Shown: in pieces, positions 3,369 to 35,759 of the stretch | Layout of the letters: the number at the start of each line of letters is the position of its first letter | Numbering within the stretch: the first letter of the stretch is position 1 | Virus record (IMG/VR): IMGVR_UViG_2563366960_000010 | Reading direction: 5' to 3' (one strand) | Length of the DNA stretch: 41,090 nucleotides | Source: a virus | Lineage: Duplodnaviria; Heunggongvirae; Uroviricota; Caudoviricetes | Translations under genes and position numbers: made by a program | The notes under the pieces: generated by a model | Told to the model about the DNA's origin: nothing | Database searches by the model: none | The model's input: only the letters and a program-made list of their open reading frames with translations

Positions 3369-3395
3369 CCCGCAAAATATTGCGGGCTTTTTTTT
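3369..3395 (+). terminator. Plus-strand intrinsic terminator abutting the tailspike stop codon
   Basis: Stem CCCGCA / TGCGGG with 6-nt loop followed by T8 on the plus strand; on the minus strand the hairpin is not followed by a U-run. Confidence 0.5.
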
Positions 3396-6300
3396 AACGT
3401 TCTTCCAGAGACTGAATCCGCTCTTTTATCTTATCCATTTCTCTGCGCTGCCATGCTGCCTCGATATAGAATAAGAGATCAGGTCTGACCCCCCATCTAG
3501 ATCCTGCTGGCGTTATTTCAACGCGCTCAATGATGTCTTCCATTACCATCACTGGATTATCATCCTCATCAACAATGATGCTCCCGTCATTATCAGTCAG
3601 CGGCATTTCCCTTTGGCCAGTAATGACGTCATCATATACTGCGGGATAATCGTCATAGCAAAGAAAGGCATAGCGGCATGTTGTGCTTTCTTCTTCCATG
3701 AGTCCGTGAGAAATAAGAACATCACGAAGTTGCTGCGCGATTACACCATGATGTATCCTCGCCCCTTCTTCCCCCTTTATAGCGACAGCGTTCAGCCATT
3801 TATAAGCGATATACCTGACGTCACCCCAGGCATCCAGCAATGCTTCGTCAGGAGAGACCGGCTCTGTCTTTAATGTTCCGTCACTGGTAACCACAGGATT
3901 GGAGCCAAGATAAACTGTCGAGAACCTGTTTCCCGGACCACCAAGAGCATTTACATTATCAAGATAAGGTTTAACATCTCCGTTCTCAAAAAGATGTTCG
4001 AGTGCGTTATATACCGCGCGACGTGGAGTACTGCTTCCGGAACCATGCAACGTTATCATTGCACCATCTGCTGAAGACGTTGTTTCACCGCCGCTAACGA
4101 TTAATCTCTGAGCGGTAACATCATCAGACGGTACTTTCTTCGCAATAATGGCGTAATTACCCTCAAGTTTGACTTCCGCGCGAACTTGTCCTGATGTACC
4201 TGCATGGACAGTCAGTGACTGGACGGCAACATCATCTGTGAAATCAACGGGTACAGGAACCGTCCTCACGCCTGACGTCGACATAAAAGTAGGAAGCGTT
4301 CTGTTAGGAGTGGCTCCGTAGACAAAATCCCTTGAAACAAATTCTTCCTGTTTAATTTTCACCCTGAAACAATACAAATCAGCCGGGTGACCATCGTGAA
4401 CATAAGGATATTTTCTGTTGTTATCCCCTATGCTCCATGGGTTTAGAAAGTCTTCCCCACCGAAAATGTAGTACAGCCAGTTGTCTTTGATACAAACTGA
4501 ACCAACACCAACTGCAGAGTTAACTATTCCGCCCTGATAAATCTGATCAGTAACATTAACCCACTCTACATTATCCAGACTCCACTCATTGACGTTAACT
4601 CTGGTCATAAATGTTCTTGGATAATTTCCTGCATAACGGTTATCAGGTTCTCCTCCTTCCCACTCACCAAATGCGCGCTCACTGCCAAAAATAATCAGCT
4701 CATCGCCAACTTTGGCAAAAGGAAGGTTTGAGTGATGAACATTATTTGGGAAGCGAAGAGAATTCCATGATGTACCTAAATCAGAGCTTCTGTGCAATGA
4801 ACTACCGGGTTGAGTACTTAATGTCCCCCTGGTCGTCAGATACAGAATGCCATCATAATATTTTACACATGGCTCAGATGCATTCGCCTCATATTCTGCA
4901 GGTATGCGTCTGCGAACAAAGCTACCAGGAGAACCGAAAGCATCAGAGAAATAGAGTATCCCAAGCTCGCGTGGACCAATATCACCATTATGGTAGCCAA
5001 CAGCAAAACTGTTATCGCTAATCGTCGCAAAACTGTGAATCTCAGTAACAGGAGTGCTTCCGTCAACAAAAGAAGGAATAGTTCCAAGACTGGTTTTTCT
5101 CCATGGTGACGAGTGAAATGATGTACCAAAACTCCAGTATCTACCCTCGTTATTCTGATCCACATCCTGGGTATTTTGCGTCGTAACTGTAAAAGTATTT
5201 TTATCAATAACAGTAGTCACCGTCATATTCCCGGTAACACCTGTAACACCAGAGTTTGAGAAGTTGACAAAATCACCAGCAAATAATCCGTGATCAGTAA
5301 TGCGAATATAAGCGACTTGCTGATTTGCTGCTTTCGTTATACCACCATAAGCGCGAAGGCTGCGACTCATTGGGCGATCCCACAACTCTGCAACCTGCAG
5401 TTTATTTCCGCTCACGGTCCGCGTCTCAATTACAGCAAAAAGGCGATTTCTGACAACCCCCATACTCATGCAGTGATAGTTAACTGTGGGATAGTTTTCA
5501 TGTAAATCTGTAAGCCATTCCGGCGTTGTCCAGGTCTTCCCGTCATCTCCTGAGCGAACCCATGCAACATGGAGGTTATTTACACCATGGCGGTCTCCAG
5601 CCATAAAAGGCGCATAGATGACATTGTCATATACAAACGTTTTATCCTGCGTCCAGGCGTTGTACCACGGTGTATCTGTAATTTTAAATAACTCTCCCTG
5701 GATAAAATCTTCAGAAGCATAAAAAAGAGGCTGGCCCGGTATTCTCTCAAATAAAAAACGAGCATTTTTAAATCGACTGACATCCGGAAGAGTTGATACT
5801 TTAAAAGTAAGCCCTAATCCGTCAATTTTATAACCTGGAGATGAGGCTTCAAGGCACGCGCTTATTGCAGTGGAATCGTCATTTATACCATCACCAACAG
5901 CTCCAAAATCTTTGGGGCTAATAGCATCACGCATTTTATCCTGGAACGTTCGGTACACAGCCCCAGAACCATACTGAATAAACCAACCAAAACCACCAAC
6001 AACCCCGGCGATTGCAGCATCGACATAATTACGCATTGAGCGATTATTTACAGCGTCCTGCTCAAATGATGGATCTGCAAGGTTAGAAATTTTGTTTTGC
6101 TTTGCATCGTAATATTTTGCAAGCAAAGATGGTTTCATCAATGCACGTCTGAACCACCCAAAACATTGCTGGATCAGCATCGTCAGGTAGTCAAAGGCAT
6201 CTTCATGCACTTCGGGGAAAAATTTTCCCTGATTGCGAAGGTCTGTCTCCTGCACTACATCAAGCACACGATCTATCGTAATTCGCCATCCAGTAGCAAG

Positions 6301-6513
6301 CGGAGACGGAAGAACCACAGAACCGCCACTATAAGTGCCCGCCCCAGTTACCGTATAACCGGTATCCAGAACCAATTCTGTTACGTTTCCGTTCAGGTCA
6401 GACACCTGAACAACCAGGTCTGATTTTCTGAAAATTCGAAAAGTATACGGAAACGATGTCGTAACGCCGTTACCGGTGTATTCGTTGTGGTCAACTTCGG
6501 TTGAGACCGTCAT
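3394..6513 (-). CDS. Tailspike: endosialidase with T7 gp17-like N-terminal adaptor and C-terminal intramolecular chaperone domain
   Basis: 1039 aa. N-terminus resembles T7 tail-fibre adaptor; sialidase-type FERIP motif; two Asp-boxes (SGDDGKTW, SSDLGTSW); C-terminus resembles the self-cleaving chaperone domain of K1F-type endosialidases. Confidence 0.8.
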   Translation of the reverse strand: MTVSTEVDHNEYTGNGVTTSFPYTFRIFRKSDLVVQVSDLNGNVTELVLDTGYTVTGAGTYSGGSVVLPSPLATGWRITIDRVLDVVQETDLRNQGKFFPEVHEDAFDYLTMLIQQCFGWFRRALMKPSLLAKYYDAKQNKISNLADPSFEQDAVNNRSMRNYVDAAIAGVVGGFGWFIQYGSGAVYRTFQDKMRDAISPKDFGAVGDGINDDSTAISACLEASSPGYKIDGLGLTFKVSTLPDVSRFKNARFLFERIPGQPLFYASEDFIQGELFKITDTPWYNAWTQDKTFVYDNVIYAPFMAGDRHGVNNLHVAWVRSGDDGKTWTTPEWLTDLHENYPTVNYHCMSMGVVRNRLFAVIETRTVSGNKLQVAELWDRPMSRSLRAYGGITKAANQQVAYIRITDHGLFAGDFVNFSNSGVTGVTGNMTVTTVIDKNTFTVTTQNTQDVDQNNEGRYWSFGTSFHSSPWRKTSLGTIPSFVDGSTPVTEIHSFATISDNSFAVGYHNGDIGPRELGILYFSDAFGSPGSFVRRRIPAEYEANASEPCVKYYDGILYLTTRGTLSTQPGSSLHRSSDLGTSWNSLRFPNNVHHSNLPFAKVGDELIIFGSERAFGEWEGGEPDNRYAGNYPRTFMTRVNVNEWSLDNVEWVNVTDQIYQGGIVNSAVGVGSVCIKDNWLYYIFGGEDFLNPWSIGDNNRKYPYVHDGHPADLYCFRVKIKQEEFVSRDFVYGATPNRTLPTFMSTSGVRTVPVPVDFTDDVAVQSLTVHAGTSGQVRAEVKLEGNYAIIAKKVPSDDVTAQRLIVSGGETTSSADGAMITLHGSGSSTPRRAVYNALEHLFENGDVKPYLDNVNALGGPGNRFSTVYLGSNPVVTSDGTLKTEPVSPDEALLDAWGDVRYIAYKWLNAVAIKGEEGARIHHGVIAQQLRDVLISHGLMEEESTTCRYAFLCYDDYPAVYDDVITGQREMPLTDNDGSIIVDEDDNPVMVMEDIIERVEITPAGSRWGVRPDLLFYIEAAWQRREMDKIKERIQSLEER

Positions 6514-6617: not shown

Positions 6618-6632
6618 TTACCTTTCAGGTAA
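6618..6632. promoter_or_regulatory. Operator-like 15-bp palindrome TTACCT-N3-AGGTAA
   Basis: Perfect inverted repeat TTACCTTTCAGGTAA upstream of the LexA box and the small antirepressor-like gene. Confidence 0.55.
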
Positions 6633-6669: not shown

Positions 6670-6689
6670 TACTGTATAAATATACAGTT
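6670..6689. promoter_or_regulatory. LexA (SOS) box
   Basis: TACTGTATAAATATACAGTT is a near-perfect match to the CTGT-N8-ACAG consensus, 20 nt upstream of the ATG at 6709. Confidence 0.7.
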
Positions 6690-6708: not shown

Positions 6709-6966
6709 ATGCAGCAGTATCACTATCCACTGGAAGACGGATTTACCGAAAGGATTCACACGCCGGGAGGCGTCAGGTCACTGGTGGAGGGATCGCACTT
6801 GATGAAATTACTCCGGGATCTCGATAAGGATGGATTTAATGTCGATGGCCCACTTGCCGAACTGACTGCACTGATTAACTACGTCACCAGCTCACAGATG
6901 TCTATGCAGGATCTGCAAACACATCTCGACTATTGTGCCGAACAATTACGAAAACAAACCCGGTAA
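6709..6966 (+). CDS. Small protein homologous to the C-terminal domain of the antirepressor at 8115-8825; candidate SOS-controlled antirepressor or modulator
   Basis: 85 aa from ATG 6709 with SD GGAG. By eye about 40% identical to the last ~80 aa of the Ant ORF (shared IH.P.GV, LM.LL, DG..V.G..AEL, QTH). Confidence 0.6.
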   Translation: MQQYHYPLEDGFTERIHTPGGVRSLVEGSHLMKLLRDLDKDGFNVDGPLAELTALINYVTSSQMSMQDLQTHLDYCAEQLRKQTR

Positions 6967-6988
6967 ATTTAAAGGCCGCAAGAGCGGC

Positions 6989-7717
6989 CTATCGTTTCGC
7001 TTTGTGCTCGTCCCAGCACGTTTTGCACCATGCCATTAAGCCGTCCGCATTTTGATTATTAGGGTAAAAGCTGGTCCGTTTTCTGCGGACATTACAAATT
7101 GGGCACCACTTCATATGGCGTGTATTCTTTGGGCCATCGAGACACCTTGCACACCACTTAGTCAATCCATCTGGATTTTTTGACGATTTCCGGAATTTGT
7201 CATATGGAAGGTTTATTCTGCATCGCAAACACTGCTTGCGGCCACTTGAAACTCTGTTAGCTGATTCTTCTTTTGGCGGCGATACAGAAGGTATTCTTGC
7301 TGGCTCTGATACTGCCTGAGGTGCTTTTTTAGATGACTGAGACGATATGTCATCACCAGGGAATCTTCCATGATATGCCGGACGCATTGATACTCCAGGT
7401 GGAAGCTCAGCTGTAAACGGCTTTGGCTGAATCAGTTGCCTCTCTTTTGCTAACTCCTGCTGTTTACAATATGTCTGGATTACCGCACTATCATAAGCAG
7501 GAGGTGCGGAAATATTAGGCGCATTACCTCCAGTTTTTTGAAACTGAGTAGAGGTGTGTTCTATCACCTGTGTACGATTAATCGTTATCTCCCCATCTTC
7601 GGTCTTTATCGTTTTGTTATGATTAACGACCGTACGATCAGAGATCTTAGTCTTGTTCTGGTTGATAACGTAAATAATCACCGCAACCACACCAACAACT
7701 ATCCAGAAAACTTCCAT
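6989..7717 (-). CDS. Membrane-anchored protein with tandem CxxC zinc-ribbon repeats; candidate superinfection-exclusion factor
   Basis: 242 aa; N-terminal TM helix, Pro/Ser-rich linker, C-terminal twofold repeat C-x2-C ... DGL..WC-x2-C; SD GAGGA upstream; operator palindrome just upstream. Confidence 0.55.
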   Translation of the reverse strand: MEVFWIVVGVVAVIIYVINQNKTKISDRTVVNHNKTIKTEDGEITINRTQVIEHTSTQFQKTGGNAPNISAPPAYDSAVIQTYCKQQELAKERQLIQPKPFTAELPPGVSMRPAYHGRFPGDDISSQSSKKAPQAVSEPARIPSVSPPKEESANRVSSGRKQCLRCRINLPYDKFRKSSKNPDGLTKWCARCLDGPKNTRHMKWCPICNVRRKRTSFYPNNQNADGLMAWCKTCWDEHKAKR

Positions 7718-7737
7718 TGCTTTTCCTCACAATAACA

Positions 7738-7752
7738 TTACCTTAAAGGTAA
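7738..7752. promoter_or_regulatory. Operator-like palindrome TTACCTTAAAGGTAA
   Basis: Perfect 15-bp inverted repeat 21 nt upstream of the minus-strand start at 7717. Confidence 0.55.
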
Positions 7753-7830
7753 TATCTTGCTTTCAGGTGATCAAGCGTTAAACGCCACCAACCAAATACG
7801 GTTGATTTTGATATTTCTCCGCGTTTATCA

Positions 7831-7845
7831 TTACCTTTGCGGTAA
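7831..7845. promoter_or_regulatory. Operator-like palindrome TTACCTTTGCGGTAA (one mismatch)
   Basis: Near-perfect copy preceded by candidate -35/-10 elements (TTGATT ... TATCAT); upstream of the structured leader before ant. Confidence 0.5.
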
Positions 7846-7935
7846 ATTTACATCGCACTCCTCTTGTGCCATAGTAATCGGGCACTGGCAAAATCCAGTG
7901 CCGGGATTGGCGTCCCGGGTTACTAAGTGGCGCAT

Positions 7936-7959
7936 ACCACGCCAGACGTGGTTTTTTTA
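7936..7959 (+). terminator. Intrinsic terminator inside the leader upstream of the antirepressor gene
   Basis: Stem ACCACG / CGTGGT with 5-nt loop followed by T7; preceded by a strong hairpin GGCACTGG / CCAGTGCC at 7881-7902. Confidence 0.6.
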
Positions 7960-8114
7960 TGCGTTAAGCACAGCTATATCCGAATTATGGTGGGCTGGGC
8001 AGGGGTCCGAAAGGACGCCGGTACCACTTAGGCCGGTACGCCAACCTTGTCCAGTTCACCACCAGTAATTGGCGTTGCGGTGGTGATTAAAATCACTAAG
8101 TGGAGATAACCACC

Positions 8115-8825
8115 ATGGCTAATGCTCAAACTTCCATCTTCAAATTTGAATCTGTTAACCCTATCCGTTCCATCATTATCGATGGCCAACCATGGTTTGT
8201 AGCCCAAGACGTTTGTAGTGCGCTGCGTATCCAAAACGTCACCCAAGCACTTGAAAAACTGGATGATGATGAAAGGTCTATGTTCAACATAGGGCATGAA
8301 CATCGTGCAATTTTTGACAGCCGAGTAAAAGAGATCAACATCATCTCCGAGTCAGGCCTCTACACACTGATCCTCCGCTGCCGCGACGCAGTGACACCAG
8401 GCACTATCCCCTACCGCTTTCGTAAATGGGTTACGGGTGAGGTTCTTCCTCAGATCCGCCGCACCGGAAGCTACATTAAAAACTCGCTCCCGCAGGAAGA
8501 ACGCATAAAGATGGTTGCCGACCAGGTGGCCAACGCCACGGCGTCAGCAGTAATGCAGGCGATGAAGATAGAGAACAAAACCTACAGCGCCCCACTGAAT
8601 CCCGGCTACCGCAGCCTGATTCATTCGCCGTCTGGTGTTCTCGGCCTGACGGAGAACTCACTGCTGATGAATCTGCTGAACCAGTTACAGGACGACGGGC
8701 ACGACGTATCGGGCGCGGCGGCGGAGCTGACCACCATGTTCTGCTACATCGTCGGTGTGAGCAAATGCCTGCGTGATATCCAGACCCACGCGGAATACAT
8801 CAACGACAAGGCAGGGTTCTTCTGA
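8115..8825 (+). CDS. ant: Antirepressor, Bro-N/KilA-N family N-terminal domain
   Basis: 236 aa from ATG 8115 with SD GGAG; N-terminal Bro-N pattern (IFKFE...IRSIIIDGQPWFVAQDV); C-terminal domain paralogous to the 85-aa ORF. Confidence 0.75.
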   Translation: MANAQTSIFKFESVNPIRSIIIDGQPWFVAQDVCSALRIQNVTQALEKLDDDERSMFNIGHEHRAIFDSRVKEINIISESGLYTLILRCRDAVTPGTIPYRFRKWVTGEVLPQIRRTGSYIKNSLPQEERIKMVADQVANATASAVMQAMKIENKTYSAPLNPGYRSLIHSPSGVLGLTENSLLMNLLNQLQDDGHDVSGAAAELTTMFCYIVGVSKCLRDIQTHAEYINDKAGFF

Positions 8826-8897: not shown

Positions 8898-8912
8898 TTA
8901 CCTTAAAGGTAA
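8898..8912. promoter_or_regulatory. Operator-like palindrome TTACCTTAAAGGTAA abutting the SD of the 55-aa gene
   Basis: Perfect copy immediately followed by AGGAGG and ATG 8925. Confidence 0.55.
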
Positions 8913-8924
8913 AGGAGGCGCGAT

Positions 8925-9092
8925 ATGACAGCGTTGAAAAATCGTACTCAGCACAATGAACAAGCCAAGCAATGCTGGGATGTCATTGGAAAAGTTATGC
9001 TTGGCCGCGCAAGCAAAGAGCGCGACAAGGATATGGTTTACCAGACAGGAACATCTTTCAGCGACTTCAAGGCGGCATTTCGCTCCAAATAG
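8925..9092 (+). CDS. Small basic protein (55 aa), first gene of an accessory two-gene cassette
   Basis: ATG with perfect SD AGGAGG at 6-nt spacing; below the 60-aa cutoff of the ORF track; no family recognised. Confidence 0.5.
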   Translation: MTALKNRTQHNEQAKQCWDVIGKVMLGRASKERDKDMVYQTGTSFSDFKAAFRSK

Positions 9093-9112
9093 AAGCACAT
9101 CAGGAGTTTTCC

Positions 9113-9553
9113 TTGAAGTTTAACATTAGAATATCTAATAGTTTTCTACATGGGGAAAGCAACACCCCTTTCGCTGTAGACGGACCTTTCCTTACTGATG
9201 ATGAAATAAAAATCATACAAAGTTTTTTAGAGGATGTTGCCAATGGAAGGGCGCTTGTTGGAAAAAACAAGCCCTCGTGGGTTGATGATAACCATGATAA
9301 AATTCCCGGCTCAGACAATTATGAGCAAGAGAATTATTGGCATTATCATTGTGGGCCAACATGGTATCCAAACACATTTAAGAATTATACCATTAACTTA
9401 AATTTCAACCCTGGCGGAAGGCATTCTAATGAATGCATTCATTATGCAAAAAATGATAATGAAATTGTCATTGTTGGATTTTCAAGAGAACACATACCTT
9501 TCCTTTCATCAGATGGAAACAACAATCCGCTTTTTAATGATGAAGAAGAATAG
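9113..9553 (+). CDS. Hypothetical 146-aa protein in AT-rich cargo region
   Basis: TTG start with SD CAGGAG 6 nt upstream; region markedly AT-rich versus neighbours; Asn/Asp-rich, acidic tail; terminator follows directly. Confidence 0.5.
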   Translation: MKFNIRISNSFLHGESNTPFAVDGPFLTDDEIKIIQSFLEDVANGRALVGKNKPSWVDDNHDKIPGSDNYEQENYWHYHCGPTWYPNTFKNYTINLNFNPGGRHSNECIHYAKNDNEIVIVGFSREHIPFLSSDGNNNPLFNDEEE

Positions 9554-9999: not shown

Positions 10000-12474
10000 T
10001 TATTGCGGAGTGACATCCTGTGGTCGCCACCAGTATGTCTGGTTAAACTCTTTCTTCGAACGTTGCTCCATTTTACGCAAATAACCTGGTGAAAAATACT
10101 CCTGCATCTGGTTAAAGATCATGTGATCGAGAGCCGCCTTCAAGTACCAGAGATTCGCACCTGGCATCAGACCTTTCCCCAGCTTAACCAGATCACCACC
10201 AGTCTGCTCACTCTTCCCTTCCACAGCATTTAACGGTATGCCCTGAGCAATCTTCACTACGTCATCAACCAGACCAGCTACCGGGCCAAGCATCGACGCC
10301 AGCGCGCCGCTTCCGTACCTAGTGTGATCTGACAATAAAAAGTCACCGTAAAGGCCAAGACCACCACCTTTCAGTAGAGCACCAAGCCAAAATTTAGCAG
10401 CATCTTCTCCTGTCATCTCGCGAGGATTACGACCAGACGCAAGGTCGTTAAGTTGCTGCGACAAAGCGCCAAGAATGGTCGTACTGGCAATAAACGTCGC
10501 AATATATGCCGCACGCCCACCAGCAGACGGCATACCCATAGCGCGTGACCAGTGACGCATAACCACCGAGATAGGGAACGATTTAAACAGGAAAACACTT
10601 CTCGTTAATTCACCTTTCCATGTTCCACGCTGAATACCAGAACCGGTTATCAGTTGCTCACGTGCTCCCGGTGTAATAACAGCCATATCAACTTCTTCAG
10701 TTACGGCACCGAGCAGTTTACGCATTGCCTCAAATTTCACGCGTTCAGGCTCACCAAGATGTTTAACTGCTGAATCAGGGATACGCATAATGCTTTCCGG
10801 TGTCAGCATCGTATTATTACCGTTCCCCCAGTCCTCCTGTTTCGCCAGCTTCCATACGCTCCAGTCTGTGTCAGTAATCCCTTTGCTTTTCAGGATACGA
10901 AAATCAGAGTCATCGAGGCTACGAAGGTCTGGTGTACGTGACACTACTTCTCCCAGGCTTCCCATCATGGTTACGCCATAGGCGCGCTTGTGCGCATCTG
11001 ACCATGCTGTAAGCCCACTGGCACGCATTACCGCCGTTGCCGCCCAACGAGACACTGACGGCCCCATATTATCCATCGCCCAGCGGTTAACGCTGCCAAG
11101 TAGAGATTCCATCGCCAGACCAGCGCGGCGCGCCCGCGCAAGTTCTGTACGGTTCGTTGGGTCCATAGCTTCAAGCTGGTTGCGGAATAACTGGTTCATT
11201 GGAAGGTTGGTAACCTTCGCAGACAGATACATGGTTCCAAGATCAGAGAACGATGACAGCAACGCGGATCCGAGTCTGCTGGCAACCAGCCAGTTGCGGA
11301 TATTGTCAGACCATCGCGCGATGTGCGGATTCGCTACAGGCTGTGTCTTTCCGGAAATAAAGTTGTACAGATTCTCTGTGTTGTTCGCCAGCCGCTCGAC
11401 TTTACCGGTTTTACTCGGGTTAGCTGTTGCCGTTTCTGCCTTCACCTGATCAAGAAGAGAGCGGAAAACATGATCGGGGTTTGGGCCATATGTTTCCACC
11501 AGTGCAATATCTTTACTGATACCTTCCAGGTGACCGACCATGATTTCCCATAGAGAGCGATCGCCATAAAGTTGCTGATATTGCAGATAGGAATCTGCAT
11601 CTTTGAAATGTATCTGTCGTGATGCATTACCACGGTTAGCACGTGCGCCGGAAATTCGCATTCCGGTATCAGTAAGCTTATTCAGCCCACCAGTAGCGAT
11701 CGTGTTATAAGCCTCTCCAAGAAATGAAGACAACTCGGCATCGTTCATCAGTTGTCCATCGGCTCGGATATAATATTTGCGATCCAGCTTACCTATAACA
11801 TCGCTAACCCACTTATCCTTTGATACTGCCCCAACCTTTTCCATAGAATGATGTTGAGGGATCCCCCAGTTTTCGAGATAGCCAATGTCCCCACCAGCAT
11901 CATTAAACCGGCGGCGCAGCAGCTCTGTAACTTCTCTCCACGCCTTAGCACCGTTTCTTGCTTTAGCATTGCCAGTATTTTGCCCCCGCATTTCATATAC
12001 CAGGTCACGTACGCCCGCTTCATCTTCAAACAGACCAAAAAAGCGAGGATCAACTGCTTCGAATGCCTCCTGCAATTGACTCAATGCATAATCACGGGTG
12101 GCTTTTGTTCTGGATTCAACAGAGAGGAAATTAGATTTACCGTCTGCATTAAAAGCTATAGTACGGTTAAGAGCGCCAAGTTTCCCATCAGCCCCTTGAT
12201 AGCTATTGATAAATTTATCCAATCTCTGACGCGCGGCTATAGTGAGAGCCACACGACGTTTCTTTAATGCCGCTTCTCGCTGTAATTCTTCAGATGCCAA
12301 TTGTGCTGCTCGATATAGCCGCTCTGATTCGGAAAGTTGTCTCCACGACATCGGGTCATCACGAGCAATGGAGCGCATATTTCGATAAATGCGGTCTTCA
12401 ATGTTCTGTATTTCTCGCGCCGTTAACGTGCGCTGCGCCGCCTGCTGGACCGCTTGTATACATTCCTGTCTCAT
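10000..12474 (-). CDS. Internal virion / DNA-ejection protein (C-terminal part of a T7 gp16-like function)
   Basis: 824 aa, follows the 600-aa gene with 5-nt spacing; position and size in T7-like virion module. Confidence 0.55.
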   Translation of the reverse strand: MRQECIQAVQQAAQRTLTAREIQNIEDRIYRNMRSIARDDPMSWRQLSESERLYRAAQLASEELQREAALKKRRVALTIAARQRLDKFINSYQGADGKLGALNRTIAFNADGKSNFLSVESRTKATRDYALSQLQEAFEAVDPRFFGLFEDEAGVRDLVYEMRGQNTGNAKARNGAKAWREVTELLRRRFNDAGGDIGYLENWGIPQHHSMEKVGAVSKDKWVSDVIGKLDRKYYIRADGQLMNDAELSSFLGEAYNTIATGGLNKLTDTGMRISGARANRGNASRQIHFKDADSYLQYQQLYGDRSLWEIMVGHLEGISKDIALVETYGPNPDHVFRSLLDQVKAETATANPSKTGKVERLANNTENLYNFISGKTQPVANPHIARWSDNIRNWLVASRLGSALLSSFSDLGTMYLSAKVTNLPMNQLFRNQLEAMDPTNRTELARARRAGLAMESLLGSVNRWAMDNMGPSVSRWAATAVMRASGLTAWSDAHKRAYGVTMMGSLGEVVSRTPDLRSLDDSDFRILKSKGITDTDWSVWKLAKQEDWGNGNNTMLTPESIMRIPDSAVKHLGEPERVKFEAMRKLLGAVTEEVDMAVITPGAREQLITGSGIQRGTWKGELTRSVFLFKSFPISVVMRHWSRAMGMPSAGGRAAYIATFIASTTILGALSQQLNDLASGRNPREMTGEDAAKFWLGALLKGGGLGLYGDFLLSDHTRYGSGALASMLGPVAGLVDDVVKIAQGIPLNAVEGKSEQTGGDLVKLGKGLMPGANLWYLKAALDHMIFNQMQEYFSPGYLRKMEQRSKKEFNQTYWWRPQDVTPQ

Positions 12475-25985: not shown

Positions 25986-26075
25986 ATCAATGACTCCGTA
26001 CGCAATTAAATTATTACCAATTTAACCACATATGATTTATTTATCGTAGGTAGTTGACATTTAACGCACAAATTA

Positions 26076-26090
26076 TTACCTTTCAGGTAA
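26076..26090. promoter_or_regulatory. Operator-like palindrome TTACCTTTCAGGTAA upstream of the tRNA island
   Basis: Perfect copy; a TTGACA hexamer lies 17 nt upstream. Confidence 0.5.
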
Positions 26091-26412: not shown

Positions 26413-26489
26413 GTGGCATTAGCTCAGTTGGACAGAGCAACCGCCTTCTAAGCGGTTGGTCGCAGGTTCGAATCCTGCATGCCACGCCA
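26413..26489 (+). tRNA. tRNA-Arg (anticodon UCU), phage-encoded, argU-like
   Basis: 77-nt cloverleaf folded by hand: acceptor GTGGCAT/ATGCCAC, T-arm GCAGG-TTCGAAT-CCTGC, anticodon loop CTTCTAA, discriminator G, encoded CCA; core resembles E. coli argU but stems differ. Confidence 0.85.
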
Positions 26490-33646: not shown

Positions 33647-34448
33647 CCCACACCCCTTCTATCCAGTCAGTGTTATTCCAGTCAAGCTCATCGCTTTTCC
33701 CGGCATTTTTTGATTTTCCCCTGATATGATTTACGTGCCTGGCGAATTTTTGTTCCCACTGAACCTGCGTGAACACTTTGCCCTCAGCCATCCAGTAATC
33801 CCGGAATGCAGCAAGTTCAGCAGGTGTAAATTCCGGTTCCGGCAGGGCCGTTCCCCACAGCGCAGCACGCCGCCGAAAATCTGGCGACGGTAGCCAGCCA
33901 TCTGTCATCGGAAATTTCCCGATGGGTTCACTCAGGCCATCCAGAAATTCAGGTTCTGCCACCTGCAACGGCGTACTGTTCGCTTCACTGGTCGGAGCAC
34001 CCTCGCGCACGTGCGCTATGTGTGGGGTTTTATATATATCTTCCTCTTCCTCTTCCTCTGGTAACTCCTTTTGTAACGCTGTTGGCGTTACTTTTTGCGT
34101 TACTCGTTTTCTATGCTCTGCCACTCTTCTATTCGTAAGTGCACGTTTTTTCGATGATTCTCCATTATGTCGCTCAAAGTTTGGAAGAATTAGTTTGCCG
34201 TCATGATAAGCAAGCCATCCGACGCTAATGAGGGCGTCAGCAAATCCTGTAATAAAAGCGAGTCTATCAAGTACTCCTTTTGTAACGCTGCCAGCGTTAC
34301 CGTCTATTGTTTGCTGGTCAGCCCATGCCCATATACGAACCAGCTTTCCAAGAACAGCATCTGGATCAATACCCAGAATTTCTGCTATCTGAAAAATTTC
34401 AGGTTTATCAGGAGTGATAACTTCAACCTTAATCCAGCTGCTTGCCAT
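33618..34448 (-). CDS. Replication initiation protein, DUF1376/YdaU-like with DnaT-like C-terminal domain
   Basis: About 276 aa from ATG 34448 with SD GAGGGG; acidic EEEEEED linker; C-terminal segment resembles DnaT-type domains; upstream of P-like gene. Confidence 0.55.
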   Translation of the reverse strand: MASSWIKVEVITPDKPEIFQIAEILGIDPDAVLGKLVRIWAWADQQTIDGNAGSVTKGVLDRLAFITGFADALISVGWLAYHDGKLILPNFERHNGESSKKRALTNRRVAEHRKRVTQKVTPTALQKELPEEEEEEDIYKTPHIAHVREGAPTSEANSTPLQVAEPEFLDGLSEPIGKFPMTDGWLPSPDFRRRAALWGTALPEPEFTPAELAAFRDYWMAEGKVFTQVQWEQKFARHVNHIRGKSKNAGKSDELDWNNTDWIEGVWDEINSRTSQ

Positions 34449-34641
34449 AGGTTTCCCCTCTTGCACTCTTTAGTGCACAAGCAAATTCATTACGATGGCG
34501 GTTGGCGCTATTCATTGCACATTCAACACATGTTCCGTTCAGAACATACCTTTCAGAGAGATGGCCGTGACGGCACCGCTTTCCTGTGAAATAGCGATTT
34601 AACCCGGCTTTTGCGGCCTCCATTCTGGTTACTATCTTCAA
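34429..34641 (-). CDS. Small zinc-finger protein (possible regulator)
   Basis: 70 aa, TTG start with SD AAGGGG; motif C-x-H ... C-x2-C. Confidence 0.4.
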   Translation of the reverse strand: MKIVTRMEAAKAGLNRYFTGKRCRHGHLSERYVLNGTCVECAMNSANRHRNEFACALKSARGETYGKQLD

Positions 34642-35174: not shown

Positions 35175-35759
35175 ATGAAAAGTATCCAGGACGTCCGCAG
35201 GCAAAATCTCAACGACTTGATCGACCGTGAATTCAATGGTGTTCAGACGCGGATGGCAGAAAAACTTGGAACTCAGGCAAATCTGGTAAACCGCTGGGCT
35301 CTTGGCAAGAAGGTTATCGGCGACCAGGTTGCACGAAAAATTGAAGCTGCCGCCAATAAACCCCGTAACTGGCTTGATATTGATCGTTCGCTTTCTCAGG
35401 AGGGTTTTCAGCCTGTCGGCCCGAGCGATATAGGTCAGCTGGCGGCTCACAACCTGGAACGCTGGATGAGCGAAAGCCGCGACCTTTCAACACAGGGAAA
35501 ACTTCACCGCGCATCCGGCGTCGCCCAGGTGACAATCAGCCGCCTGTTAAACAATGAGGTCAGCGTTTCCATTTCCACCCTGGAGAATGTTGCATCCGCA
35601 TTCGGGCGTCACGGATATGAACTACTGATTCACCCGCACGACCCTGCGACTATCAACTATGACCGCTCACGCTACGCATTGTTACCCGAAACCGAGAAAG
35701 CAAAGATCGAAAGTTACATTGAATTTGTCATCAACCAGAACGAAAAAAGCAAACAATAA
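35175..35759 (+). CDS. Prophage repressor candidate with tandem XRE-type HTH domains and no S24 peptidase domain
   Basis: 194 aa; two HTH-like segments; no Ser-Lys autocleavage domain recognisable; divergent from the cro-like gene. Confidence 0.6.
   Translation: MKSIQDVRRQNLNDLIDREFNGVQTRMAEKLGTQANLVNRWALGKKVIGDQVARKIEAAANKPRNWLDIDRSLSQEGFQPVGPSDIGQLAAHNLERWMSESRDLSTQGKLHRASGVAQVTISRLLNNEVSVSISTLENVASAFGRHGYELLIHPHDPATINYDRSRYALLPETEKAKIESYIEFVINQNEKSKQ

Follow-up and report, generated by a model that had tools for sequence, protein, structure and literature searches.

The open reading frame (ORF) at positions 6989..7717 (- strand) of IMG/VR virus record IMGVR_UViG_2563366960_000010, a 41,090-nt stretch of caudoviricete DNA that we refer to as the window, is strongly supported to encode a bitopic inner-membrane protein, in which structure modelling and alignment place a basic head of two Cys4 zinc ribbons at the end of a flexible cytoplasmic tether. 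Equally strongly supported is the view that the gene is an optional, self-contained moron, equipped with promoter/operator and hairpin and lodged in the variable region between the tailspike and the ejection-protein genes. As to function, our reading is tentative and open to considerable doubt: the protein may be a membrane tether that captures DNA or protein at the inner membrane face, is wired to the immunity switch and probably excludes competing phages.

The ORF can be regarded as a real gene because it has conserved homologue clusters and a full-length profile match to PHROG 6762 (E = 1.9e-149, residues 1-242 against positions 1-242 of 242), a family whose function is annotated as unknown. 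Its 242-aa coding sequence runs from an ATG to a stop codon at 6989-6991, in agreement with homologues and alignment, and a Shine-Dalgarno sequence, GAGGA, was read 6 nt ahead of the ATG (7724..7728, -). A search of 5.8 billion proteins returned 33 homologue clusters at 38-97% identity, and all of the named ones are labelled hypothetical or uncharacterised. Full-length members measure 198-242 aa, share 38-63% identity and come from nine Enterobacterales genera (Escherichia, Superficieibacter, Enterobacter, Citrobacter, Salmonella, Serratia, Providencia, Pectobacterium and Buttiauxella). An exhaustive profile search yielded about 50 full-length representatives at 50% clustering and detected the zinc-ribbon module in 1683 proteins. 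A scan of genome contigs gave only 4 loci, and our estimates of how the gene is distributed therefore draw on viral and E. coli collections.

A preliminary description, made from the DNA letters and their translations, had assigned to the product one N-terminal transmembrane (TM) helix, a Pro/Ser-rich linker and a twofold Cys repeat at the C-terminus, and had named structure prediction of the repeats as a check. An AlphaFold2 model of the 242-aa protein (mean predicted local distance difference test score, pLDDT, of 72) agrees with each of these elements. Residues 3-21 (7655..7711, -) form a TM helix with pLDDT 87-94, and the hydrophobic stretch is kept in all homologues. The helix is followed by a juxtamembrane β-hairpin (residues 29-52; 7562..7633, -; pLDDT about 77), which is conserved in the alignment, with T39, G42 and E43 invariant or nearly so. 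Residues 53-158 (7244..7561, -) make up a disordered tether (pLDDT about 44-65) rich in Pro, Ser and Gln, which account for 14, 14 and 9 of its 106 residues, respectively; among homologues its length ranges from 63 to 106 aa. The C-terminal domain, residues 159-242, was predicted with confidence (pLDDT 92-96) and comprises two zinc ribbons. Ribbon 1 (residues 159-196; 7130..7243, -) contains C163, C166, C189 and C192, and ribbon 2 together with the C-terminal helix (residues 201-242; 6992..7117, -) contains C205, C208, C231 and C234. Both follow the pattern C-x2-C-x8-F-x7-DG-x3-WC-x2-C in exact register with a 42-residue period, and profile-profile comparison aligned one with the other at a probability of 97% (E = 9e-11). 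All eight Cys are invariant or nearly so among homologues. The head is also strongly basic, with a net charge of about +15 here and of +13 to +17, at an isoelectric point of about 10, in all homologues.

Within the tether, residues about 97-122 (nt about 7352-7429) hold a stretch, QPKPFTAELP-GVS-RPAYHG-FPGD, that is conserved only in the Escherichia/Superficieibacter/Enterobacter/Citrobacter/Salmonella clade and could serve as a short linear docking motif.

The residues on either side of the TM helix bear on its orientation. The N-terminal flank is acidic (ME) and the C-terminal flank basic (NQNKTKISDR). Based on the positive-inside rule, and because Cys4 zinc sites fit a reducing compartment, we infer an N-out/C-in topology, with nearly the whole protein in the cytoplasm and only about 2 residues predicted to reach the periplasm. 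The N-terminus of the protein has neither a basic n-region nor a cleavage site. A secreted or periplasmic protein was also considered and was ruled out by the missing n-region, the acidic-then-basic flanks, the fit of the Cys4 zinc sites to the cytoplasm and a (TK)8 repeat found in Yersinia. This repeat stands directly after the TM helix in the homologue from Yersinia phage YeP5 (L093, 1900..2634), the annotated start of which is probably ~29 codons too far upstream, since an internal MEIFW start fits the family. Among 98 small two-ribbon relatives, 68 carry a single N-terminal TM helix, while the spacers vary between hairpin plus disorder, coiled coil and short linker. Because the single TM helix is kept while the spacers change, anchor and head appear to be a conserved unit under selection. 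E. coli ZipA has an N-out/C-in N-terminal anchor, a long Pro/Gln-rich tether and a C-terminal cytoplasmic globular binding domain. The likeness to ZipA is one of architecture only: sequence and head domain are unrelated, and nothing links the 242-aa protein to FtsZ.

The only recurrent Pfam match of the head is Stc1 (PF12898), which was obtained for 16 of 22 family members at E ≤ 0.1. The 242-aa protein scores 21.6 bits over the whole sequence and 22.9 bits for the domain against a gathering threshold of 24.8 bits, a threshold that multi-repeat relatives exceed with 56-60 bits. Foldseek searches of BFVD retrieved HNH, ββα-Me and Stc1 proteins (down to E = 4.5e-7), the structural neighbours of the head are Hpy99I, PacI and viral HNH endonucleases, and PHROG matches fall on the N-terminal ribbons of EndoVII/HNH families. 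When the PDB was searched by sequence, neither the domain nor a 22-member profile found a significant match (Stc1, 2luy, E = 0.26; PacI, E = 8.9), and an NCBIfam search of the 242-aa protein returned no match. The profile and fold matches strongly support the assignment of the ribbons to a Stc1-like module, one that in phages and giant viruses is found together with HNH/EndoVII nucleases of the His-Me finger type. The ribbons resemble the zinc modules of this group (Hpy99I, PacI, actinophage HNH) in being tandem Cys4 ribbons of the form C-x2-C ... (W/Y)C-x2-C, and differ from them in having no catalytic residues and in being fused to a membrane anchor rather than to a nuclease or helicase.

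With such neighbours, the protein might itself be an active His-Me nuclease of the HNH/PacI-like kind, bound to the membrane and cleaving DNA as it enters. The head does contain the β-hairpin and helix core with a Cys4 zinc knuckle by which His-Me fingers are recognised, and PacI works without the canonical His, via a Tyr (PMC5714182); Y218 is nearly invariant in the family described here. The hallmark of the His-Me finger is, however, a nearly invariant catalytic His closing strand 1 (PMC5714182), and in the alignment this His is absent from both ribbons: F175, which is invariant, stands at its position in ribbon 1, and F217, nearly invariant, in ribbon 2. On the first turn of the helix, where a metal-binding Asn or His would be expected, no residue is conserved in the wider family. 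Pfam HNH and Endonuclease_7 had no match to the 242-aa protein at E ≤ 1 and matched 0/22 family members at E ≤ 0.1. We therefore judge an active nuclease extremely improbable. Because the catalytic His is replaced by Phe, the most fitting interpretation of the head is a binding module that derives from, or associates with, nucleases and is not one itself.

Comparison with related phages delimited the gene as an insertion. The DNA and gene order of the window match phiV10, TL-2011b and epsilon15, which identifies it as an epsilon15/phiV10-like (Uetakevirus) E. coli prophage, a temperate podophage, and rules out a P22-like phage. As the preliminary description had noted, the ORF lies between the tailspike gene (3394..6513, -) and the genes for the large internal/ejection proteins (from 10000..12474, -, onward), and P22 sieA and immI do occupy the analogous interval in P22. 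In phiV10 and a dozen relatives the flanks are matched and the region of the ORF is not. Relative to phiV10, ~870 bp comprising hairpin, gene, operator and promoter are inserted between an 85-aa gp19-like gene and the promoter of the antirepressor operon; blastn breakpoints at 6966 and 7841 bound the cassette at 6967..7840, and 12 phage records (H3-H14) give two-piece matches. A terminator-like hairpin, AGGCCGC-TCTT-GCGGCCT, covers the stop codon (6973..6990, -), head-to-head with the convergent gene 6709..6966 (+). Its T-tract is weak; homologues have a comparable hairpin just past the stop, and in Providencia (L008) the T-tract is stronger. The full region is present in 128 of the 533 flank-carrying genomes found among 5426 complete E. 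coli genomes. The TL-2011b copy is without its first 18 codons, so loss of the gene does not kill the phage. Morons of lambdoid phages have their own promoter and terminator and a patchy presence. The cassette shares with them a clean presence or absence in otherwise collinear phages, a hairpin of its own and a proposed promoter of its own; it differs in that this promoter is built around the immunity operator and is thus predicted not to be constitutive.

The same distribution weighs on the possibility that the protein attaches the phage's own DNA to the membrane for replication or organisation. Phage phi29 p16.7 is an early protein that is anchored in the membrane by its N-terminus, binds DNA through its C-terminal domain and serves the phage's own replication. 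The 242-aa protein would likewise be of an early type, and it combines an N-terminal anchor with a basic head that probably binds DNA; it differs from p16.7 in fold, and its gene is optional and mobile. Since the gene is dispensable, is carried by only about one in four of the closely related prophages and has moved between unrelated phage types, it fits a replication core poorly, and we give little credence to such a role.

The preliminary description had also assigned to the gene its own operator palindrome, 21 nt upstream. A perfect 17-bp palindrome, ATTACCTTAAAGGTAAT, is indeed present (7737..7753; core TTACC-N5-GGTAA, 7738-7752), but it lies 19 nt from the ATG and is not private, being a copy of a phage-wide operator. 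With up to 1 mismatch, TTACC-N5-GGTAA occurs 13 times in the window against 0.55 expected, a count that 0/100 shuffles reached, which rules out both a private operator and a chance feature. A terminator was ruled out by the AT-rich centre and by the recurrence of the motif at promoters. The sites lie at 6618, 7738, 7831, 8898, 26076, 29181/29199, 32756/32818, 35057/35105 and 35817/35879. The copy at 7831..7845, found by motif search, is 93 bp from the first and adjoins the -35 element of the divergent isrK/C4/ant promoter.

Copies of the operator also flank the gene for the prophage repressor (35175..35759, +), two on each side by search and a degenerate third (2 mismatches) upstream by eye, where they overlie divergent early promoters; on these grounds we regard the palindrome as the immunity operator. 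The repressor comprises 194 aa, with two helix-turn-helix (HTH) motifs and no S24 peptidase domain according to Pfam, and is 99.5% identical to ORF21 of vB_EcoP_ZX5 and to the phiV10 repressor. Overexpression of ZX5 ORF21 abolished free phage and cut lytic transcripts by >99.9% (PMC9782041). The 194-aa repressor presumably binds TTACC-N5-GGTAA. Further copies precede accessory units, namely the gp19-like gene, the ORF at 6989..7717, the isrK/C4/ant operon, a 55-aa ORF and a tRNA unit. Each examined accessory unit of the interval from tailspike to ejection-protein genes starts with an operator, as is also the case in the Superficieibacter (4 sites) and Serratia (2 sites) relatives.

Operator and promoter of the gene appear to coincide. 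The σ70 promoter that we propose by eye (7746..7774, -) consists of a -35 element TTGATC (7774-7769), a 17-nt spacer and a -10 element TACCTT (7751-7746); transcription is predicted to start near 7739 and to leave a leader of about 21 nt. It matches 7/12 consensus positions, which is below the scanner threshold, and is deduced from conserved geometry. At 26076 a perfect TTGACA is followed after 17 nt by TACCTT, the operator's left half, so this half-site doubles as the -10 element. Consistent with this arrangement, TTGACC-17-TACCTT stands upstream of homologues in Enterobacter, Citrobacter and Salmonella contigs (L068-L073) and TTGAAC-17-TACCTT in Serratia (L004/L084), and the same operator motif precedes homologues in L003, L004, L064 and L067-L073. 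The repressor should thus sit on the -10/+1 region of the gene and silence it, and because the operator covers the -10 element, silence is predicted in the established lysogen.

Homologues in phages with other operators show an equivalent layout. In Providencia phages TTAACC-N5-GGTTAA is found at the same place, with TAACCT as the -10 element, and TAACC-N5-GGTTA occurs at 3 sites against 0.01 expected. In a siphovirus whose tail module harbours the gene, CTGAT-N5-ATCAG lies upstream of the homologue and of a neighbouring moron (3 sites against 0.01 expected). The operator type of the gene therefore appears to track the immunity type of the resident phage. With an operator half-site as -10 element, any cassette that carries such a half-site would fall under immunity control, and the regulation is directly testable.

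Two further observations concern these promoters. The consensus promoter TTGACA-17-TACCTT (26046-26090, +) lies about 330 nt upstream of a tRNA on the same strand (26413-26486, +). A second palindrome, TGTGACATGTCACA, with CRP-like arms and a 4-nt spacer, is present just upstream of the homologue -35 element in Superficieibacter, Enterobacter, Citrobacter and Salmonella contigs (L003, about 7900-7915; L067-L073, about 5935-5950) and is absent from the window copy.

In the same variable interval of epsilon15-like prophages, homologues occur in Superficieibacter, Serratia, Providencia, Pectobacterium and Yersinia, usually next to Bro-N, KilA-N/ANT or pRha antirepressors or to a HicBA pair, and at most of these loci on the strand opposite to the structural genes. 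HicB/HicA pairs lie beside the homologue in Superficieibacter (L003, 7397-7411) and Pectobacterium (L098, 6446..6892) prophages; the former is preceded by a TTACC-N5-GGTAA operator just behind a TTGACG-17-CAAAAT promoter.

Other homologues directly follow lysogeny genes. In Aeromonas phage phiARM81mr 18 nt separate the stop codon of an S24-type cI from the start of the homologue, which has a Shine-Dalgarno sequence and no terminator ahead of it, and in an Acinetobacter prophage the homologue begins 54 nt after cI, with a hairpin in between. In an epsilon15-like phage with P22-type immI (L100) it begins 11 nt after mnt, which is the P22 orf59a/sieA slot. The sieA-like genomic position proposed at the outset is thereby borne out, both by this occupancy and by the placement of the phiARM81mr and Acinetobacter homologues directly 3' of cI. 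Lysogens would be expected to produce the cI- and mnt-linked versions, and what all contexts appear to have in common is wiring to the immunity switch together with probable early expression after infection. Lambda rexAB and similar genes are co-transcribed with cI, and lactococcal Sie2009-type genes lie beside the repressor. The phiARM81mr and Acinetobacter homologues are like these in being on the same strand as cI and directly 3' of it, but there is no homology, and the window gene carries the repressor's operator without being adjacent to the repressor gene.

The preliminary description had offered, as its alternative, a membrane-sequestered regulator. On this view the protein would keep the repressor, an antirepressor or a similar regulator bound to the membrane and thereby adjust the choice between lysis and lysogeny. 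Such a role agrees with the antirepressors (Bro-N, KilA-N/ANT, pRha) that adjoin the gene in epsilon15-like phages and with cI or mnt/arc/ant elsewhere, and also with the window, where the gene and the isrK/C4/ant operon are transcribed divergently and two operators lie 93 bp from each other. Providencia phages, however, carry the gene without a nearby Bro-N/ANT, and the siphovirus copy sits inside a tail module. The potential partners also differ by context (HTH repressor, S24-type cI, ribbon-helix-helix Mnt), which argues against one conserved regulatory target, and positions adjacent to immunity genes are equally typical of defence morons. We regard modulation of the immunity circuit as distinctly unlikely.

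An early anti-defence or host-takeover factor, which would be produced once the repressor is missing and would sequester or block a host cytoplasmic or membrane-associated factor (e.g., a restriction or defence component) at the membrane, is unlikely as well, though not strikingly so. It would account for the early, repressor-sensitive expression predicted from an operator over the -10 element, for the company of antirepressors and other early accessory genes in nearby units with the same operator, and for the accessory, patchy occurrence of the gene. Ribbon 2 additionally gives a weak match to the PHROG family "Lar-like restriction alleviation" (PHROG 5558). This match is confined to residues 201-241, against positions 7-47 of 130, and thus to a generic ribbon, and Pfam Lar_restr_allev has no match to the 242-aa protein. 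Co-transcription with cI or mnt, seen in three lineages, would moreover be unusual for such a gene.

We rank exclusion from the cytoplasmic side first because a weapon in phage conflict is the simplest explanation for a membrane protein that is accessory, encoded by one gene and linked to immunity. The protein would be a ZipA-like tether, and its zinc-ribbon head would catch a cytoplasmic ligand on the inner surface of the membrane; DNA would be the most likely ligand and a protein a possible one. In phage-versus-phage conflict, superinfecting DNA, or the cytoplasmic end of the delivery machinery, would be held or blocked at the inner membrane. In the window phage such action would be expected mainly when the repressor is absent or inactivated, as in early infection or induction, and the cI- and mnt-linked versions may act in the lysogen as well. 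A bolder proposition, which we consider quite unlikely, is that the family represents a new single-gene class of phage-borne exclusion or defence, in which a catalytically dead, HNH-derived double zinc finger tethered to the inner membrane would capture either foreign DNA or the injection machinery by its cytoplasmic tip, on emergence into the cytoplasm, its expression hard-wired to the immunity switch via the resident operator or by a place behind cI or mnt.

The closest positional counterpart, P22 SieA, is likewise an accessory inner-membrane protein encoded between ejection genes and tailspike beside the antirepressor region. By inspection, SieA has 164 aa, several hydrophobic segments and no Cys-rich domain, whereas the 242-aa protein has one TM helix (3-21), a predicted cytoplasmic bulk and a promoter overlapped by the repressor operator. 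SieA is expressed from the prophage and is believed to disturb the periplasmic/membrane gp20-gp16 conduit (PMC10883804).

Several results weigh against exclusion from the cytoplasmic face. Similarity to SieA is absent (the best BLASTP hit to P22 SieA has E = 0.22 over 7 residues), no superinfection-exclusion PHROG is among the families listed at E ≤ 1, and 0 families of the PADLOC 2.0 defence models match at E ≤ 1. The injection blockers characterised so far exert their effect within the membrane or the periplasm, where the 242-aa protein is predicted to expose almost nothing. With the operator over the -10 element, the gene is predicted to be silent in the established lysogen, where a classical exclusion gene would be expressed from the prophage, and this predicted silence conflicts with the cI- and mnt-linked contexts. 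The 7/12 promoter is itself proposed, weak and uncalled by the scanner, and binding of the repressor to TTACC-N5-GGTAA is something we infer. Stc1 itself is a protein-binding module. Finally, the TL-2011b copy that lacks 18 codons indicates that the gene is dispensable.

The protein could instead act by abortive infection, with ribbons that sense foreign DNA or protein and a clustering of TM helix and hairpin that damages the membrane. It is encoded by a single prophage-borne gene and is N-terminally anchored, the conserved hairpin could oligomerise, and membrane-anchored Abi proteins of prophages exist, PdpSau being one example (PMC10127798). One short TM helix with a disordered linker nevertheless offers no recognisable effector, and PADLOC gave no match; the probability of this explanation is small.

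Exclusion and defence functions are known to be encoded by accessory genes of the tailspike/immI interval of temperate phages, few of which have been worked out. Members of the present family are widespread among prophages of Enterobacterales and extend to Aeromonas and Acinetobacter, and the database entries found for them are hypothetical, uncharacterised or unnamed. If exclusion does operate from the cytoplasmic face of the membrane, its mechanism would be distinct from those of SieA, Imm, gp15 and Sie2009.

Other features of the window lie on either side of the gene. The tailspike (3394..6513, -) is an endosialidase with β-propeller, β-barrel and intramolecular chaperone domains and an epsilon15-type N-terminal adaptor, as identified by Pfam, and because it is an endosialidase the prophage is probably specific for the K1 (polysialic acid) capsule. 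The ORF at 6709..6966 (+), convergent with 6989..7717, is the 85-aa epsilon15 gp19-like gene. The sole LexA box of the window, a perfect one, TACTGTATAAATATACAGT (6670-6688, +), is located 20 nt upstream of its ATG. Because the repressor has no self-cleavage domain, the 85-aa protein is a candidate SOS-controlled antirepressor following Tum/Gifsy-type logic. LexA control of the gene at 6989..7717 was considered and ruled out, as the only LexA box belongs to this neighbour.

On the other side, the antirepressor gene ant (8100..8825, +) is preceded by two RNA elements that score above the Rfam gathering score: the Hfq-binding small RNA isrK (7882-7958, +; 67.7 bits) and the C4 antisense RNA (7983-8066, +; 66 bits), the latter ahead of the Bro-N antirepressor gene. 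The isrK/C4/ant arrangement is a P1/P7-type immI layout within an epsilon15-like phage. The isrK promoter, TTTACA-17-CATAGT, ends 7 nt upstream of the isrK start, and the operator at 7831-7845 adjoins its -35 element (centre about -44), a position that fits activation rather than repression. In phiV10 (L002, about 5385-5425) the pre-isrK operator lies inside a far longer perfect inverted repeat, GGAGTGCTTATATTTACC-GCAAA-GGTAAATATAAGCACTCC.

Farther on, an operator identical to the 7738 copy (8898-8912) directly precedes AGGAGG and the 55-aa ORF at 8925..9092 (+), which overlaps a 193-aa ORF without a Pfam match (8972..9553, +). In the early leftward operon, a 70-aa ORF (34429..34641, -), also without a Pfam match, contains a putative metal-binding motif, C-x-H ... 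C-x2-C (RCRHGH...GTCVEC).

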